The notes under the pieces: model-generated | What the model was told of the DNA's origin: nothing | What the model saw: the letters and a program-made list of their open reading frames with translations, nothing else | Databases searched by the model: none | Sequence record: MN445185.1 | Reading direction: 5' to 3' (one strand) | Length of the DNA stretch: 64,000 nt | Source of the DNA: Escherichia phage vB_EcoM_EC001 | Program-made: the position numbers and the translations under genes | Shown here: in pieces, positions 11,043 through 59,549 of the stretch | How positions within the stretch are numbered: the first letter of the stretch is position 1 | Layout: the number at the start of each line of letters is the position of its first letter

Positions 11043-11110
11043 AAAACACAAACGCAATTCTTCGTTACTCGCTTTCATCGCAGGTGAAAGCTCACTTAGG
11101 AATTCAGCTC

Positions 11111-11599
11111 ATGGCCGAAATTGTCATTCTTTCCTCATCCTCAGATTTAACGGAAGCACAAAATAAACAGCTGTTGGGGCTGCATTATAAATTTCTGAAC
11201 CACCAACGTACCATACTCCATATCGAAAAAGGTGAGATTCCGAACCTCACTCTGGAGAAACTGTTGGCGGGGAACCGTGCTTGTGTTGCTCTGGAAGGGG
11301 GTACCCCTGTTGGTTACTGTTTGTATCGCGTAATCGCTGGGGTTCTGAAGATTCGTACGATGTTCGTGTCTGAAATGGCACGCCGTCGTAAAACGATGAC
11401 GCAGATTTTTGATGCGCTTGATGTGAATGAACGGTTCACCAGTGCGCATGGGGGAATATACGCTTGCCAGGAAGCTGGTATTGCGTTCTTTACCGCTCGC
11501 GGTTTTGACAAGACCGTCTCTACAGACGGACAATGGCTTGAATTTAAGAAGCAGGTTCCTGCGGAAGCAGATGAACCTTTAAGGACTGCGGTAGCGTAG
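11111..11599 (+). CDS. hypothetical protein, possibly GNAT-like acetyltransferase (162 aa)
   Basis: Start moved from track ORF 11084 (GTG) to ATG 11111; C-terminal ...AGIAFFTARGFDK resembles GNAT motif B; assignment weak. Confidence 0.5.
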   Translation: MAEIVILSSSSDLTEAQNKQLLGLHYKFLNHQRTILHIEKGEIPNLTLEKLLAGNRACVALEGGTPVGYCLYRVIAGVLKIRTMFVSEMARRRKTMTQIFDALDVNERFTSAHGGIYACQEAGIAFFTARGFDKTVSTDGQWLEFKKQVPAEADEPLRTAVA

Positions 11600-11627
11600 T
11601 CCTGTTTTAGCACTCCTTACGATTATG

Positions 11628-11653
11628 CCTCACTATGAGTGGGGTATTTTTTA
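11628..11653 (+). terminator. probable intrinsic terminator
   Basis: CCTCACT-atg-AGTGGGG (one G-U) then TATTTTTTA; a second weaker hairpin spans the upstream stop codon. Confidence 0.45.
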
Positions 11654-11670
11654 CGCGAGGAGTGCTATTT

Positions 11671-11880
11671 ATGTTTCACCGTCCTGGGTTTTCAGCTTTA
11701 AACACCGATGTCTGTTGGGCTGAGTACGAACGGGCGAAGGAGTTCTTACCCGTAAATCCAAAACACATCAACGTGGGTACTATCGGGCGTGTTGCGTTTG
11801 ATGATACTCCGCTGAGTACGTGTATTAAAGCAGCGCTTGGTACGCTGCCGGCGTCTATAGTTATTGAGGAATTAAAATGA
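11671..11880 (+). CDS. hypothetical protein (69 aa)
   Basis: Start moved to ATG 11671 with GAGGAG SD 10 nt upstream. Confidence 0.5.
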   Translation: MFHRPGFSALNTDVCWAEYERAKEFLPVNPKHINVGTIGRVAFDDTPLSTCIKAALGTLPASIVIEELK

Positions 11881-12395
11881 CGGACATTCGTGTTGACATA
11901 TATGGGGAAATTCATACCACGGCCGATCGTAATCGTGTTGAATGGGCGATCATCGATAACCATCGGAAAAAACCATACGATTTTTTACTGTGTGAAGAAC
12001 TGGGGCCGTATGAATATCACACTGCAAAAGCGCAAGATAAGGCATTAAAGGAGAAGATGTACTCTATTGGGCCCATGGGGCTGGAGTTGGCTAAGAAACT
12101 CGGCATCCCTGCTATTGGGATCGATGACTGGAGCGATGCAACCTACGCTAAAGATATCAAGGATAAAAAGGGAAGGGCTGTAAACTTTAGCCGTTCTTTT
12201 TATATTCGTGAAGCTAAAATGGTTGAAAAAATTAAAAAGTATATGGCAAAAGGACGTTGTGCTGTTATGCTCGGCGACTCACACTTGCGCACCACGAAAA
12301 CCAAAGAGCTTGGTGGTGCGTCCCTTATCTGGGAAACATTTAAGGATAATCCTGAAGTGAAGTTTCACAGGAGCCCTAAACGCGAGATTGATTAA
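11877..12395 (+). CDS. hypothetical protein (172 aa)
   Basis: ATGA overlap with upstream gene; GAGGA SD. Confidence 0.6.
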   Translation: MTDIRVDIYGEIHTTADRNRVEWAIIDNHRKKPYDFLLCEELGPYEYHTAKAQDKALKEKMYSIGPMGLELAKKLGIPAIGIDDWSDATYAKDIKDKKGRAVNFSRSFYIREAKMVEKIKKYMAKGRCAVMLGDSHLRTTKTKELGGASLIWETFKDNPEVKFHRSPKREID

Positions 12396-12413
12396 ATCTA
12401 AAGGAGCATTAAA

Positions 12414-12836
12414 ATGGTTACCGCTATTCGCGAAACAAAATCACTATACGATCATTTATCAGAAGAAGAAACAGCCTTATTCTACGACCTGTTACCTGAA
12501 ACCAAAGCAAACGTTCAGTGGTGGTTACGTTTAGCGTTACGTGATAAAGTTGGGGAAACGCCGGTTAGTATTCTCGCGCACACGTTGGACATGACGCCCA
12601 TGATTGAAATCGCGATTACCCGCCCTAAATTCTGGCGGCCTGGTATGGTGCGTGAGGCGTATCTACTCCAACGCTTAGGTGTTGACCCGGAGAAGTGTTG
12701 GCGTAAGATGGACGACCATCGCTACCGTGAAGAAATTACGAATAGCCTCAACACTATGTTGGCAATGAAACGACTCGGTATCGAACACGAAGGTTTCGAG
12801 TCAGCGGTACAAACCTGGGTGAAAAGGAATAGCTAA
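12414..12836 (+). CDS. hypothetical protein (140 aa)
   Basis: AAAGGAG SD 8 nt upstream. Confidence 0.6.
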   Translation: MVTAIRETKSLYDHLSEEETALFYDLLPETKANVQWWLRLALRDKVGETPVSILAHTLDMTPMIEIAITRPKFWRPGMVREAYLLQRLGVDPEKCWRKMDDHRYREEITNSLNTMLAMKRLGIEHEGFESAVQTWVKRNS

Positions 12837-13085
12837 ATGCAAAAAACAATCATCGGAATAACAGTTAGTTCTTTCTGTGGCTTCCCTACCCCACAAACAG
12901 AACCCCAATATTTAGGCGCAGGTAAACCCGATCCGGAAGTCCGTAAGTTGCGCGAAGAAGCAAAAGCCAGAGTTCTTACTGAGCTGGAATCGTTGCTTCA
13001 GTCTCCGGTTATTTCACAATGGGGTATGGCAATAGATGTCACTAGAACTGATCGACGAGGCCGTTATCTCCCACGACCTGTTTAA
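12837..13085 (+). CDS. hypothetical protein (82 aa)
   Basis: ATG immediately after upstream stop; AAAGGA SD; 3' end overlaps the macro-domain gene by 50 nt in another frame. Confidence 0.45.
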   Translation: MQKTIIGITVSSFCGFPTPQTEPQYLGAGKPDPEVRKLREEAKARVLTELESLLQSPVISQWGMAIDVTRTDRRGRYLPRPV

Positions 13086-13536
13086 CGCGCCTGAGCGCTT
13101 CAAGGTCGTTACAGTTAACTGTGTTGGTGCAATGGGAAGGGGCATTGCTTTGGCGTGCCGAGAACGCTTCCCATCGCTTTATAATGACTATCGCCAGAAA
13201 TGTCGTAAAGAGCAAATCGTTATCGGTGAGGTCTATTGTTATCCTGAGGAAGGGGTAATACTCCTTCCTACTAAAACCCATTTTCGCTATAAATCGCAGA
13301 TTTACTATGTCACGTCCGGCATTGATGCGCTGGCGCGACTAGGGGAAGACTTAGAAGGAGGGATTGCGATACCGCCCCTAGGGATGGCTAACGGTTGGTT
13401 ACGTTACCATGAGCGATTGGAAATCTTTATACACTTACAGAAACGACTACAGCACACGGAGCAGACTTATCGATTCTATTTACCGGACACATTGCTAAGG
13501 GAAGCAGAGAAAATCATCCCAAAAAGTTTCAAATAG
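13036..13536 (+). CDS. macro-domain protein, TARG1/DarG-like (166 aa)
   Basis: Motifs in order: HDLF…VNCVGAMGRGIALACRERFP, QIYYVTSG, GIAIPPLGMANGW, resembling the TARG1/OARD1/DarG macro subfamily as I recall it. Confidence 0.6.
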   Translation: MSLELIDEAVISHDLFNAPERFKVVTVNCVGAMGRGIALACRERFPSLYNDYRQKCRKEQIVIGEVYCYPEEGVILLPTKTHFRYKSQIYYVTSGIDALARLGEDLEGGIAIPPLGMANGWLRYHERLEIFIHLQKRLQHTEQTYRFYLPDTLLREAEKIIPKSFK

Positions 13537-13551
13537 ATATTATCATCAGGG
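13520..13551 (+). promoter_or_regulatory. conserved promoter-like element (ATATTATC variant)
   Basis: CAAAAAGTTTCAAATAGATATTATCATCAGGG; shares A-tract + AGATAgATATTAyC pattern. Confidence 0.4.
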
Positions 13552-13635
13552 CACATTACAAAGGAGCACAATGCCGTCCGCGCCGTCTTCCCGGATTGGG
13601 AACGGAAAAGTATAAATCCGTTTGGAGATACATCC

Positions 13636-14358
13636 ATGTTTCGCACCATTTTATTTCTTCTGGTAGCAGTGACCACATTCAACAGCAACGCTTCTTACCA
13701 GTCCACCAGTAACAAACATCAAAAAGAATTTGTCCTTATCCAGGACCAGTTCAATGAGATTAAACCTCTCATCGTCTCTGCATCTCGAAAACAAGGCGTA
13801 CATGCCGGGATGCTTGCGACCACCATTTACCGCGAATCCCGTTTTAATAAAAACGTGGGTAAGAATAAATCGAGCAGTGCTAGTAGTGTTGTCCAAATGA
13901 CGACAGGTACTAAACGCTCCATGATACGTCTGTATGGGAAACAACTTAACATCCCAAAGAACGCAGACCTTAATAAACCGAAATATGCTGTACAGCTTGC
14001 TGCTGTTTACATGAAACACATCGAGGATCATCTGACAAAACAACTCAAACGCAAGCCGAGCACAGCCGAAATTGCATTAGGCTACCGCTTCGGTGAGAGC
14101 GCTGCTGTTGCGATGATTAAAAAGAAATCATCGGTCGGGAAACGCTGGATGGACAGCTACCGAAAAGACGCAGCATTCTACGGTGCGAAAATGACGCCAC
14201 CGAAAGCTGAAACACGTCAGCTTGCTTTTGCGAAGGAAGACCGCGACCAACGCGTCGCTGAGCTTCAGAAAATCTGGGATACGCTGTACACCAAAATATC
14301 ACCTGCGGCCGGTACACTACTGGCAAATAACACTATCATGAAAGGAGCATTGCTTTGA
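13636..14358 (+). CDS. secreted protein, possible lysozyme-like/lytic transglycosylase (240 aa)
   Basis: Signal peptide; loose SLT-like segment YRESRFNKNVG…SVVQMTTGT; preceded by a 14-codon upstream ORF. Confidence 0.55.
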   Translation: MFRTILFLLVAVTTFNSNASYQSTSNKHQKEFVLIQDQFNEIKPLIVSASRKQGVHAGMLATTIYRESRFNKNVGKNKSSSASSVVQMTTGTKRSMIRLYGKQLNIPKNADLNKPKYAVQLAAVYMKHIEDHLTKQLKRKPSTAEIALGYRFGESAAVAMIKKKSSVGKRWMDSYRKDAAFYGAKMTPPKAETRQLAFAKEDRDQRVAELQKIWDTLYTKISPAAGTLLANNTIMKGALL

Positions 14359-14948
14359 CACTCGTAACACGCCCCTGGTATCCAGGTCTTAAAACAGCCG
14401 CACAAATCACCGCCAAAGATGTCTACGAATTAATTCGCGCGGGTGCGGAACACGTTCAAACCAACCCGAACTATGTAGAGCGTCCTATCGGTGAAGTCGA
14501 TGGGGAAGCTGTCGAAGCACCGGTCTACGTTGAGTACGGCGAATGGTTCGCAGAGAACCACGGTTTCTACGACGCGTTAAACGCGGCGTTTGGTGATGAC
14601 GAAGACGAAGGTATCGAATTCGACTGGAACGTTAATCTGGCGCTGATGTGGATTTGTGGTTTACGTCCAGCAATTAACGAAACCGAAGCAGGTTTCGTGC
14701 TGACCTGGCGACAGTCGGCAGGTTACGATAAAGGTCTCGACTTCAAACAGGCGTATATGGATGTGTCGATTGCACTGCAGAAACTGTTCTTCGGCGACCG
14801 TGCTTTCTGCCAGCTCAGCTGGTTGACCATCCTGGAAAAACTGGCAACGTGTCACAAACTGTGGCGAGCAGAAGATGCCCCAGAACATCTGTTCGTGCTC
14901 GAATACGCAGTGGTACCAAACCAGCCGTTCTTTGAGGCCGAAGCGTAA
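14355..14948 (+). CDS. hypothetical protein (197 aa, TTG start)
   Basis: TTG start overlapping upstream stop (TTGA) with AAGGAG 7 nt upstream; no in-frame ATG for ~97 codons; terminator follows. Confidence 0.6.
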   Translation: MTLVTRPWYPGLKTAAQITAKDVYELIRAGAEHVQTNPNYVERPIGEVDGEAVEAPVYVEYGEWFAENHGFYDALNAAFGDDEDEGIEFDWNVNLALMWICGLRPAINETEAGFVLTWRQSAGYDKGLDFKQAYMDVSIALQKLFFGDRAFCQLSWLTILEKLATCHKLWRAEDAPEHLFVLEYAVVPNQPFFEAEA

Positions 14949-14953
14949 TTAAC

Positions 14954-14986
14954 GGTCAGACCTTCGGGTCTGACCACCTTTTATTT
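14954..14986 (+). terminator. intrinsic terminator
   Basis: GGTCAGACC-ttcg-GGTCTGACC then ACCTTTTATTT. Confidence 0.8.
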
Positions 14987-16479: not shown

Positions 16480-16516
16480 CTACCTACTCCCTTGGGAGTA
16501 GGTAGTTCTTTTTTTC
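16480..16516. terminator. bidirectional intrinsic terminator between convergent genes
   Basis: 11-bp stem CTACCTACTCC/GGAGTAGGTAG, loop CTTG; T-run downstream and A-run (AAAAAATAAAAG) upstream. Confidence 0.8.
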
Positions 16517-57783: not shown

Positions 57784-58077
57784 ATGGGAATTTTAGATAC
57801 GCTCAAGCAGCAGCATGGGATTCCGGTGGGCCGTAATAGCACGAATCCGGAAACGGAAGGTTATTCCCCACAGCAACGCATGAACTTTGTTGTTCTGGGC
57901 AATGCGGTTGAATTGGCCACCGAAATTATTCACGGACTGCTGAAGGGCAGCAATGGCCTGTCTGACCGCATGGGCGATCAGCGTTTGCTGAAACGAGACA
58001 TCGCTGATATGGTGGGTGCGCGCATTACTGGTCGCATCCAGGATTCCATCAGCACCAAAAACGGGGGTCAGGCATGA
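57784..58077 (+). CDS. hypothetical protein (97 aa)
   Basis: GGAG SD; preceded by a GC hairpin without T-run. Confidence 0.5.
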   Translation: MGILDTLKQQHGIPVGRNSTNPETEGYSPQQRMNFVVLGNAVELATEIIHGLLKGSNGLSDRMGDQRLLKRDIADMVGARITGRIQDSISTKNGGQA

Positions 58078-59549
58078 TCAACTTATATTCACTTAATGCT
58101 GTCACCAACGCAATGAAACTGGCGAAACAACACCAGATTCGTTTGGATGCTGACGTTGACAGTCCTGTTGGTCTACTGACAAAAGCGACTACGCAGCAGA
58201 GCGTTTTCGATACACAGATAACTGACGAAGAGTTCTTCCAGTCTCTGCCGGATATCACTGCACTGAAAACGCCGCAGTCCGGAACAGGCGAAGCGTCTGT
58301 AATCGCAGACACCGCAGCGGGTCCAGAAACGCTGAACGTCGAAGACCACGAACCAACGCTGTTTGAACTGAAGCGTATGGCTATCCAGCGTTGTCAGGGT
58401 ATGCTTGACTTTGCCCGTAACGTTATTCAGCCGTTTGTTCAACTGGTTATCCAAAACAACCAGGGTATTGAAAACCAGGCAGTTAGCGAAGAGTGGGCAC
58501 TCGTACCTGCAGGTATGGACCCGGCGCTGAACTCCCCGGTGGTACAGGCGTTAATTGATTCGGTAGAAAACCCGCTGGGTAATGGTACTACGCATCCCGC
58601 AGTTAAAGCCAACGTCCCTGCCGATATCGAACTGCCAGAAACTGGCAGCAAAGCATACGACGATCTGGTTAAAGAACTGTTGAATGCGCTGGGTTGGAAT
58701 ATCAACGAAGCCGTTCGCAACATGCTCGAAGGGAACATGCTCTCTCCGGTAAGCGACCAGGCACCACACAACCTGAAACGCAACATTCTGTTTATGCTGC
58801 TTTCTGGCTACTACCTGGAAATGCCGTGGAAAGACTCTGGTCTGAATAGCGGGCAGTGGAAAGCACAGATGCTGCCATTGCATTACAGCTATATCGGGTG
58901 GGTTTACGCCTACACCCAGAACATCGTTACCCGCATCAAGACCGGTAACATTGTCTTCGGATACGACAACGTTGAGAAGAAAGTGTATATCTGCCAGGAA
59001 GTTATGGATGACTATCTGGAAAAAGGCGGTAGCGTTGAAGCGTTACTGGGCGCTATTTACCAACTGGACGAAGGTGACACCAATGTCTCCACGCGTGTAG
59101 CTTCACTGTTGGAAAAACAGAAAGACTACATCGCTGCCTGGAGCCACCGTTCCGCGATTCAGCGTGCTAAGCTCGATAGCAATTGGGTAACACGCAATCG
59201 CCAGTCACTGAAACAAGCGTTTAACGTGGCTATCGATGCGACCGATCCTGAACTGTTCTGGCGTGGACAGGACGGTCAGGTAGCAACGCCGGAGTTCGTT
59301 AAGAAATCAACGGCAAGCTTCATCGATTCGTTCTTCACAACCGACACCACAGACATCACTGAGTTCGTTATCAAGGTCTCCGCGACTGAGGTCTTCGGTG
59401 AATACGAACTGTCCAAGCTGATGCTGGATATTCATCGTGGTATGATTGCTAACCGTCAGCCTGACGAGGTGGCGACCGACTGGATGATTAACTACGTCCT
59501 GGATTGGATTTGTGGCGGTGTGGTTATTTCTGTACCGAGCAAAGTTTAA
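58074..59549 (+). CDS. hypothetical protein (491 aa)
   Basis: ATGA overlap with upstream gene; GGGGG SD. Confidence 0.7.
   Translation: MINLYSLNAVTNAMKLAKQHQIRLDADVDSPVGLLTKATTQQSVFDTQITDEEFFQSLPDITALKTPQSGTGEASVIADTAAGPETLNVEDHEPTLFELKRMAIQRCQGMLDFARNVIQPFVQLVIQNNQGIENQAVSEEWALVPAGMDPALNSPVVQALIDSVENPLGNGTTHPAVKANVPADIELPETGSKAYDDLVKELLNALGWNINEAVRNMLEGNMLSPVSDQAPHNLKRNILFMLLSGYYLEMPWKDSGLNSGQWKAQMLPLHYSYIGWVYAYTQNIVTRIKTGNIVFGYDNVEKKVYICQEVMDDYLEKGGSVEALLGAIYQLDEGDTNVSTRVASLLEKQKDYIAAWSHRSAIQRAKLDSNWVTRNRQSLKQAFNVAIDATDPELFWRGQDGQVATPEFVKKSTASFIDSFFTTDTTDITEFVIKVSATEVFGEYELSKLMLDIHRGMIANRQPDEVATDWMINYVLDWICGGVVISVPSKV

Follow-up and report, generated by a model that had tools for sequence, protein, structure and literature searches.

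The 64,000-nucleotide stretch of Escherichia phage vB_EcoM_EC001 analysed here (sequence record MN445185.1, one strand; hereafter the window) carries a stand-alone macrodomain gene, referred to below as the macro gene, whose product resembles the macrodomain of the antitoxin DarG2 and is orthologous to AdfM, a published anti-DarT factor of jumbo phages. A preliminary description made from the letters alone had placed a 166-residue open reading frame (ORF) at this position, and that frame is real, 13036 being the first start codon past the in-frame stop.

13036..13536, plus strand: macro gene, ATG start, encoding an AdfM-type stand-alone DarG2-like macrodomain of 166 residues

Over 5 kb the window DNA is 97-98.6% identical (megablast) to JN03, SPN3US and their relatives, which identifies the phage as a Salmonella jumbo phage like SPN3US, in the genus Seoulvirus. 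The macro gene corresponds to SPN3US_0196 (gp196; RefSeq ACQ60_gp070, 'macro domain-containing protein'), and its product has 100% identity with JN03 QNI20886.1 and 99.4% with its SPN3US counterpart. GenBank labels for the orthologue vary from 'hypothetical protein' in the original SPN3US record to 'phosphatase' and 'protein-ADP-ribosylation protein' (e.g. OQ383623.1, MT679221.1, OR413578.1), with Appr-1-p names for homologues in some records; the label 'protein-ADP-ribosylation protein' is the opposite of the predicted activity. We found no mention of SPN3US gp196 in the papers searched, the matches to 'gp196' there being to Goslar. As a separate observation, SPFM1, 5-10, 12, 14, 15 and 20 (LR5359xx) carry the macro gene and the small gene upstream of it as three to six tblastn fragments of 70-91% identity, and sibling SPFM records hold intact copies at 99.4%; assembly or sequencing errors are a more likely source of the fragmented copies than true decay.

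Sequence, profile and fold comparisons

When the macro protein was searched as a single sequence with phmmer against all Protein Data Bank (PDB) chains, the M. tuberculosis DarG macrodomain 5M3I was matched at E=1.9e-20, T. aquaticus DarG (TaqDarG; 5M31/5M3E) at 8.7e-19 and Thermosipho africanus DarTG (7OMU) at 1.9e-10. The next match was Poa1p, at E=0.05 and over residues 21-59 only, and TARG1 gave no match at E<=10 in this search. Family profiles point the same way, with matches to NCBIfam antitoxin_DarG (338 positions, of which 7-150 are aligned; E=1e-30, 107 bits, equivalog cut-off 250) and to PADLOC DarG (7-147 of its 329 positions; E=4e-32). Since both DarG profiles are matched over their N-terminal macro half only, the protein constitutes the macro half of DarG without its C-terminal half. 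PHROG 335, which carries the label 'phosphatase', was matched at E=1.3e-29. A search with the profile of the family itself ranked DarG first, then TARG1 (1.2e-8), alphavirus nsP3 (~1e-5) and Poa1p (4e-4); the DarG values of this search are inflated by the two DarG fragments contained in the underlying alignment, and its ranking still agrees with that of the non-circular phmmer search.

An AlphaFold2 model built from the same 37-sequence alignment (A1), which includes PhiKZ gp104 and two DarG macrodomains, reached a predicted local distance difference test score (pLDDT) of 92.8 and a predicted template modelling score (pTM) of 0.89. Foldseek placed the DarG structures 5M3E, 5M31, 5M3I and 7OMU at ranks 1 to 4 in the PDB (E from 5.5e-13 to 5e-9, 29-32% identity), the best being 5M3E with E=5.5e-13, a template modelling (TM) score of 0.83, a root-mean-square deviation (rmsd) of 2.2 Å and 32% identity. 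TARG1 appeared amid generic viral and cellular macrodomains (E~7e-7, 16% identity) and Poa1p at rank 27 (E~3e-6). There were 205 PDB matches at E<=0.001, and the 50 listed are nearly all macrodomains, together with serine-hydrolase designs on that scaffold. The TARG1/DarG-like macrodomain proposed in the preliminary description is therefore borne out by sequence, profile and fold searches, with the refinement that the similarity is to DarG2 specifically and that TARG1 is a remoter relative; the fold comparison that it had suggested returned a confident macro fold with DarG structures on top. No second macro gene was found in the window.

Active site and ADP-ribose loop

The active-site residues and the loop lie on the DNA as follows.

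13117..13119, plus strand: Asn28 codon (aac), equivalent to T. aquaticus DarG N22 and PhiKZ AdfM N23, invariant in the family alignment
13273..13275, plus strand: Lys80 codon (aaa; motif LPTKTHF), the counterpart of the catalytic lysine in DarG (K80), PhiKZ AdfM (K78) and TARG1 (K84), invariant in the family alignment
13381..13401, plus strand: ADP-ribose-gripping loop G116-M-A-N-G-W-L122, equivalent to TaqDarG G117-A-G-N-G-G-L123

Across the 37 homologues the invariant columns are T26, N28, G31, M33, G34, G36, A38, Y52, T79, K80, G116 and G120. The ADP-ribose hydrogen-bonding residues of TaqDarG are N8, L9, T20, N22, V31, Q34, T79, G117, G119, N120 and G121 (Jankevicius et al. 2016, PMC5179494), the gripping loop closes over ADP-ribose, the K80A mutant is inactive, N22A, K29E and G119E are strongly impaired, and the macrodomain alone suffices as antitoxin (PMC5179494). 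The asparagine positions ADP-ribose and is mutation-sensitive both in TaqDarG (N22; PMC5179494) and in PhiKZ AdfM (N23; PMC13309987). Mapped through the alignment, seven of the eleven TaqDarG contacts are identical in the macro protein (L15, T26, N28, T79, G116, N119 and G120). I37 stands for V31 and R35 for K29. A118 stands at TaqDarG G119, where PhiKZ AdfM likewise has alanine, and F83 keeps the aromatic character of TaqDarG W83, the proposed thymine-stacking residue. In a manual alignment the position of TARG1 D125 appears to be Gly120 in the macro protein, as in DarG.

Orthology to the AdfM family

AdfM (anti-DarT factor macro) was described in chimalliviruses as PhiKZ gp104, PhiPA3 gp108, Goslar gp83 and Asesino gp217 (Morgan et al., Cell Rep 2026, PMC13309987), with homologues in about half of chimalliviruses. 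In that work PhiKZ gp104, a DarG2-like macrodomain that is imported to the phage nucleus, strips DarT2-made ADP-ribose from a TNTC oligonucleotide, an activity impaired by N23A; it also rescues DarT2 toxicity and is required for PhiKZ growth on DarTG2 hosts (PMC13309987). The proteins of Asesino, PhiKZ and PhiPA3, fused to green fluorescent protein, go to the phage nucleus, and the import signals are described as phage-specific surface features (PMC13309987). PicA-dependent import into the nucleus is a trait expected of AdfM proteins. SPN3US is not named in the main text of that paper. The macro protein of the window is 69.9% identical to Asesino gp217 over its full length and matches PhiKZ gp104, whose sequence we translated from the methods of PMC13309987, at 35% identity and E=3e-25.

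DarT search and bacterial relatives

A search of the window with the P. aeruginosa DarT2 of PMC13309987, run with phmmer --max and with tblastn over all 521 six-frame segments that reach 50 residues, detected no DarT (best E>1), and ten neighbouring proteins gave no match to DarT in PADLOC, which includes a DarG model and should include one for DarT as well. With this query 80 plasmid DarTs are recovered, the most distant at 27% identity, and DarT2 homologues are present on Escherichia, Citrobacter and Klebsiella replicons. The plasmid-borne bacterial homologues of the macro gene directly adjoin DUF4433/DarT genes, as in NZ_CP013056.1 (DarT, 238965-239582; macro gene, 239609-240043). The closest relatives among bacteria are therefore genuine DarTG2 antitoxins.

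Proposed function and alternative explanations

We consider it likely that the macro gene encodes an AdfM-type orphan-antitoxin enzyme that reverses DarT2 ADP-ribosylation of phage DNA. In the mechanism that we propose, host DarT2 would ADP-ribosylate thymidines in single-stranded phage DNA, the macro pocket of the phage enzyme would bind the ADP-ribose, and Lys80, aided by Asn28, would cleave the thymine-ribose bond to return unmodified DNA, so that replication and packaging could proceed. By analogy with the PhiKZ work, the window protein is predicted to be active on DarT2-modified DNA and to protect against DarTG2. SPN3US-like phages are described as members of the nucleus-forming Chimalliviridae, and the protein therefore probably acts inside the phage nucleus, which it would reach by selective import as the Asesino orthologue does. 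The preliminary description had read the gene as a counter to ADP-ribosyltransferase-based defence, a reading that the DarG2 similarity, the catalytic residues and the AdfM orthology support by analogy.

Several points weigh against this interpretation. D14 occupies the position of TaqDarG N8 and A40 that of Q34, and, as the one striking change specific to it, the SPN3US/Erwinia clade carries W121 in its loop (GMxNGWL) where DarG and PhiKZ have glycine (G[AVC][GA]NGGL); these differences could shift specificity. The substrates of T. aquaticus DarG include RNA with uracil-linked ADP-ribose (PMC13036486), and DNA is thus not the sole possible substrate. The generic Pfam Macro profile scores 21.7 bits, slightly under its cut-off of 22. 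Enzyme activity has been shown for PhiKZ gp104 only, to which the identity is only the 35% given above, and Asesino gp217, the closest characterised relative, was tested for localisation only. A literature search for DarTG in Salmonella gave one candidate paper, in which DarTG is cited in passing only.

The same fold and chemistry could instead serve another substrate, such as RNA bases (for example uracil-linked ADP-ribose) or proteins modified by an ADP-ribosyltransferase, of host or phage, that is not DarT2. TaqDarG and TARG1-like macrodomains do hydrolyse uracil-linked ADP-ribose on single-stranded RNA, with TaqDarG markedly less efficient than TARG1 (PMC13036486); TARG1, which is the nearest relative among eukaryotic proteins, removes the modification from proteins as well, and the changes at W121, D14 and A40 lie in the ligand pocket. 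We nevertheless regard this as unlikely, as the strongest similarity is to DarG2 macrodomains, the closest bacterial relatives adjoin DarT genes, and the orthologous AdfM acts on DarT2-modified DNA and is imported to the site of phage DNA (PMC13309987). A housekeeping role, as an ADP-ribose-1''-phosphate phosphatase or O-acetyl-ADP-ribose deacetylase of the Poa1p/MacroD kind that clears NAD-derived by-products of RNA repair, would fit the PHROG 335 'phosphatase' label, the Appr-1-p and phosphatase names in GenBank, the weak Poa1p match at E=0.05 and the roles proposed for jumbo-phage Macro domains (Iyer et al., PMC7824862). It is very unlikely, in that Poa1p/MacroD-type proteins fall far below DarG both by sequence (0.05 against 1e-20; 4e-4 in the profile search) and by fold (Poa1p at rank 27), the TARG1/DarG catalytic lysine is invariant, and the labels are inherited rather than tested functions.

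Jumbo-phage macro domains have also been predicted to degrade soluble signals derived from ADP-ribose (PMC7824862), and the protein could on that basis be a degrader or sponge of immune signals such as Thoeris-type cyclic ADP-ribose isomers. We found no similarity specific to such enzymes, and the DarG-type Lys/Asn pair and the DarG profiles point to cleavage of a base-linked glycosidic bond, which makes this explanation more improbable still. Least probable of all is that the protein serves as cognate antitoxin to a DarT-like toxin of the phage itself, the two forming a DarTG module directed against hosts or competing phages. Bacterial darG follows darT, often closely, and in the window the macro gene begins within a small gene; that small gene encodes only 82-118 residues, largely helical or disordered, the macro protein has no DarG C-terminal domain, and DarT was detected neither in the 64-kb window (of a genome of ~240 kb, the remainder of which was not searched) nor among the ten neighbours scanned with PADLOC.

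Overlapping small gene upstream

The gene that overlaps the 5' end of the macro gene is a homologue of SPN3US gp195.

12837..13085, plus strand: small upstream gene, 82 residues, homologue of SPN3US gp195; its start codon adjoins the stop of the preceding 140-residue gene (TAAATG), and its last 50 nt lie within the macro gene
13036..13085, plus strand: 50-nt dual-coding overlap of the gp195 homologue and the macro gene, read in different frames and marked by nucleotide conservation

The preliminary description had noted an overlap of 50 nt in another frame, which is exact, and had offered two explanations for it, coupling or a mis-called ORF. The frame and the overlap are conserved and substitutions are biased to third positions, and the evidence favours a real, co-transcribed gene over a mis-called one. 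The gp195 frame is open, with an identical 50-nt overlap, in SPN3US, SPAsTU, pEa_SNUABM_29, Asesino and phiEaH2, the proteins of the Erwinia phages being 41-45% identical to that of the window. The 66 residues encoded outside the overlap suffice to match Erwinia-phage orthologues (E=5e-7 and 4e-6), and substitutions relative to SPAsTU are third-position biased (9/7/19 at the three codon positions). In the same diverged genomes the overlap shows 2-5 differences per 50 nt, against 35-52 in the next 150 nt that encode the macro protein only, a pattern consistent with the signature expected of dual-coding constraint. The comparative sequence evidence thus indicates that the 82-residue ORF is a real gene and not a mis-call; co-transcription with the macro gene is likely, and translational coupling of the two is plausible.

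The gp195 proteins (82-118 residues) share a conserved core, CG[YF]P..TEP[EQ][YF], and are largely helical or disordered. The 82-residue protein of the window gave no Pfam, PHROG, NCBIfam or PADLOC match, and an AlphaFold2 model from six orthologues (pLDDT 63.8, pTM 0.34) was too poor for a fold search. One could imagine that AdfM of Seoulvirus and Erskinevirus works as a two-gene module in which gp195 would be, for example, an import adaptor, a stabiliser or a DarT-binding partner that replaces the C-terminal half of DarG, with Trp121 broadening or shifting specificity (e.g. towards uracil-linked ADP-ribose on RNA or other DarT variants); we consider this arrangement quite unlikely.

Genomic neighbourhood

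The following features surround the macro gene and gp195.

11084..11599: GNAT acetyltransferase, placed immediately before the block of small genes (PHROG 3810, E=1.1e-41; Pfam Acetyltransf_1 passes its 20.7-bit cut-off narrowly, with 20.9 bits)
11625..11647, plus strand: terminator-like hairpin and T-run after the GNAT gene, 10-pair stem (consensus scan only)
11877..12395, plus strand: accessory 172-residue ORF (PHROG 14325; weak Pfam DUF5694, E=0.009)
13636..14358, plus strand: SLT-domain transglycosylase, annotated 'putative endolysin' (Pfam SLT E=3e-6, above cut-off; PHROG 4067)
14954..14975, plus strand: terminator-like hairpin and T-run after a 197-residue gene, 9-pair stem with 6 GC (consensus scan only)
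16480..16505, plus strand: strong terminator-like hairpin and T-run (consensus scan)

The macro gene had been placed by the preliminary description within a block of small unknown genes. This stands in part, as the gene at 13636..14358 is an SLT transglycosylase and a GNAT gene lies just upstream of the block. The order SMC-like gene, GNAT, variable small genes, macro gene, SLT is conserved in SPN3US, SPAsTU, pEa_SNUABM_29, Asesino, phiEaH2, a contig of a Salmonella assembly and an Enterobacter 'plasmid'. In every relative examined the macro gene is followed by the SLT gene, which we report as context that does not imply a functional link. The SLT protein starts with a hydrophobic N-terminal stretch (MFRTILFLLVAVTTFNSNA) resembling a signal peptide or signal-anchor. 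A macro gene of 62-63% identity occurs in the same order in NZ_CP134650.1 (filed as an Enterobacter ludwigii 'plasmid', 222 kb) and in AAWEAX010000007.1 (a 226-kb contig of a Salmonella enterica assembly); the supposed plasmid and the supposed bacterial contig both resemble jumbo-phage genomes. The stretch between the GNAT and macro genes varies among phages. Its 172-residue ORF is present in the window, SPN3US and JN03 and missing as a clean gap from SPFM and SPLA phages, and it might be another anti-defence candidate.

Terminator-like sites numbered 15 in 6.2 kb, against 5.6 +/- 2.2 expected, and the three hairpins listed above sit exactly in intergenic gaps, where they mark the likely limits of transcription units. 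It is plausible that the hairpins at 11625..11647 and 14954..14975 bound a transcription unit, 11635..14948, that would hold the macro gene. A scan for sigma-70 promoters was not above chance (12 against 8.2 +/- 3.2 expected), which is expected because the phage has its own RNA polymerases.

Probable status as a nucleus-forming phage

SPN3US is described in the literature as a member of the Chimalliviridae with a diverged chimallin, gp244 being named as a very diverged chimallin with 10% identity to that of 201phi2-1. The window contains homologues of this protein and of its neighbour.

58074..59549, plus strand: SPN3US gp243 homologue, 491 residues
59559..60287, plus strand: SPN3US gp244 homologue, 242 residues

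A Pfam scan assigned neither of the two to a family. Canonical chimallins have roughly 600 residues, a length of which the gp244 homologue, at 242 residues, falls far short. The chimallivirus status of the window phage rests on the SPN3US literature together with the DNA identity of 97-98.6% to SPN3US and JN03. Neither SPN3US nor Asesino is named in the text of Prichard et al. 2023.

Significance

The macro gene is already annotated and the counter-defence function of its family was published in 2025-26, and in this respect the finding is already known; what remains new is the dual-coding overlap with gp195, which is conserved, and the clade-specific Trp121 loop. The analysis extends the AdfM counter-defence of PhiKZ, with catalytic residues intact, to SPN3US-like jumbo phages of Salmonella, E. 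coli and Proteus that are considered for biocontrol, and it predicts that SPN3US-like phages resist hosts carrying DarTG2. It also corrects misleading public labels of the gene, namely 'phosphatase', 'protein-ADP-ribosylation protein' and 'hypothetical protein'.

Comparison with known systems

Our analysis places the window protein closest to the published AdfM proteins. Like them it is stand-alone (the family size being ~160 residues), DarG2-like and encoded by a jumbo phage, and it keeps the catalytic Asn and Lys; the Asesino gp217 gene moreover has the same downstream neighbour, an SLT endolysin-like gene. The SPN3US/Erwinia clade differs in its GMxNGWL loop with Trp121, where PhiKZ has GCANGGL, in a distinct conserved C-terminal segment, YLPxxLxxEA, and in its conserved overlapping upstream gene, for which no search was made in PhiKZ. 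With DarG itself (DarG2; 5M31/5M3E, 5M3I; PMC5179494) the protein shares the fold (TM 0.80-0.83, rmsd 2.2-2.5 Å), K80, N28 and most ADP-ribose contacts, but it comes from a lytic phage and has neither the C-terminal DarT-binding region nor an adjacent darT. Human TARG1/OARD1 (C6orf130, 4J5S) belongs to the same macro sub-class and shares the catalytic-lysine mechanism (TM ~0.78), yet it is a eukaryotic protein/nucleic-acid hydrolase and only 16% identical.

Counter-defence against DarT has been described in other phages with related logic. T4 becomes sensitive to DarTG2 when it loses Tk.4, a macrodomain protein independently named AdfM (HIDEN-SEQ preprint, 10.1101/2025.11.20.689424), and Tk.4 follows the same counter-defence logic against DarTG2 as that proposed here. 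We rejected an equivalence of the two proteins, which are only remote relatives (BLASTP 27% over 63 residues, E=0.01; hhalign E=1.9e-5, probability 78%): in Tk.4 the PTK lysine is not conserved at the aligned position, the protein belongs to another macro lineage, and T4 forms no nucleus. Orphan NADAR antitoxin-like enzymes of T4-like phages (AdfN) counter DarTG1 (PMC11825919), and an antitoxin mimic of ICP1 counters Vibrio DarTG (PMC11481870). Both systems resemble the one proposed for SPN3US-like phages in that a free-standing antitoxin copy or mimic carried by the phage neutralises DarT, and AdfN differs in having a NADAR rather than a macro fold and in targeting the guanine-linked ADP-ribose made by DarT1.

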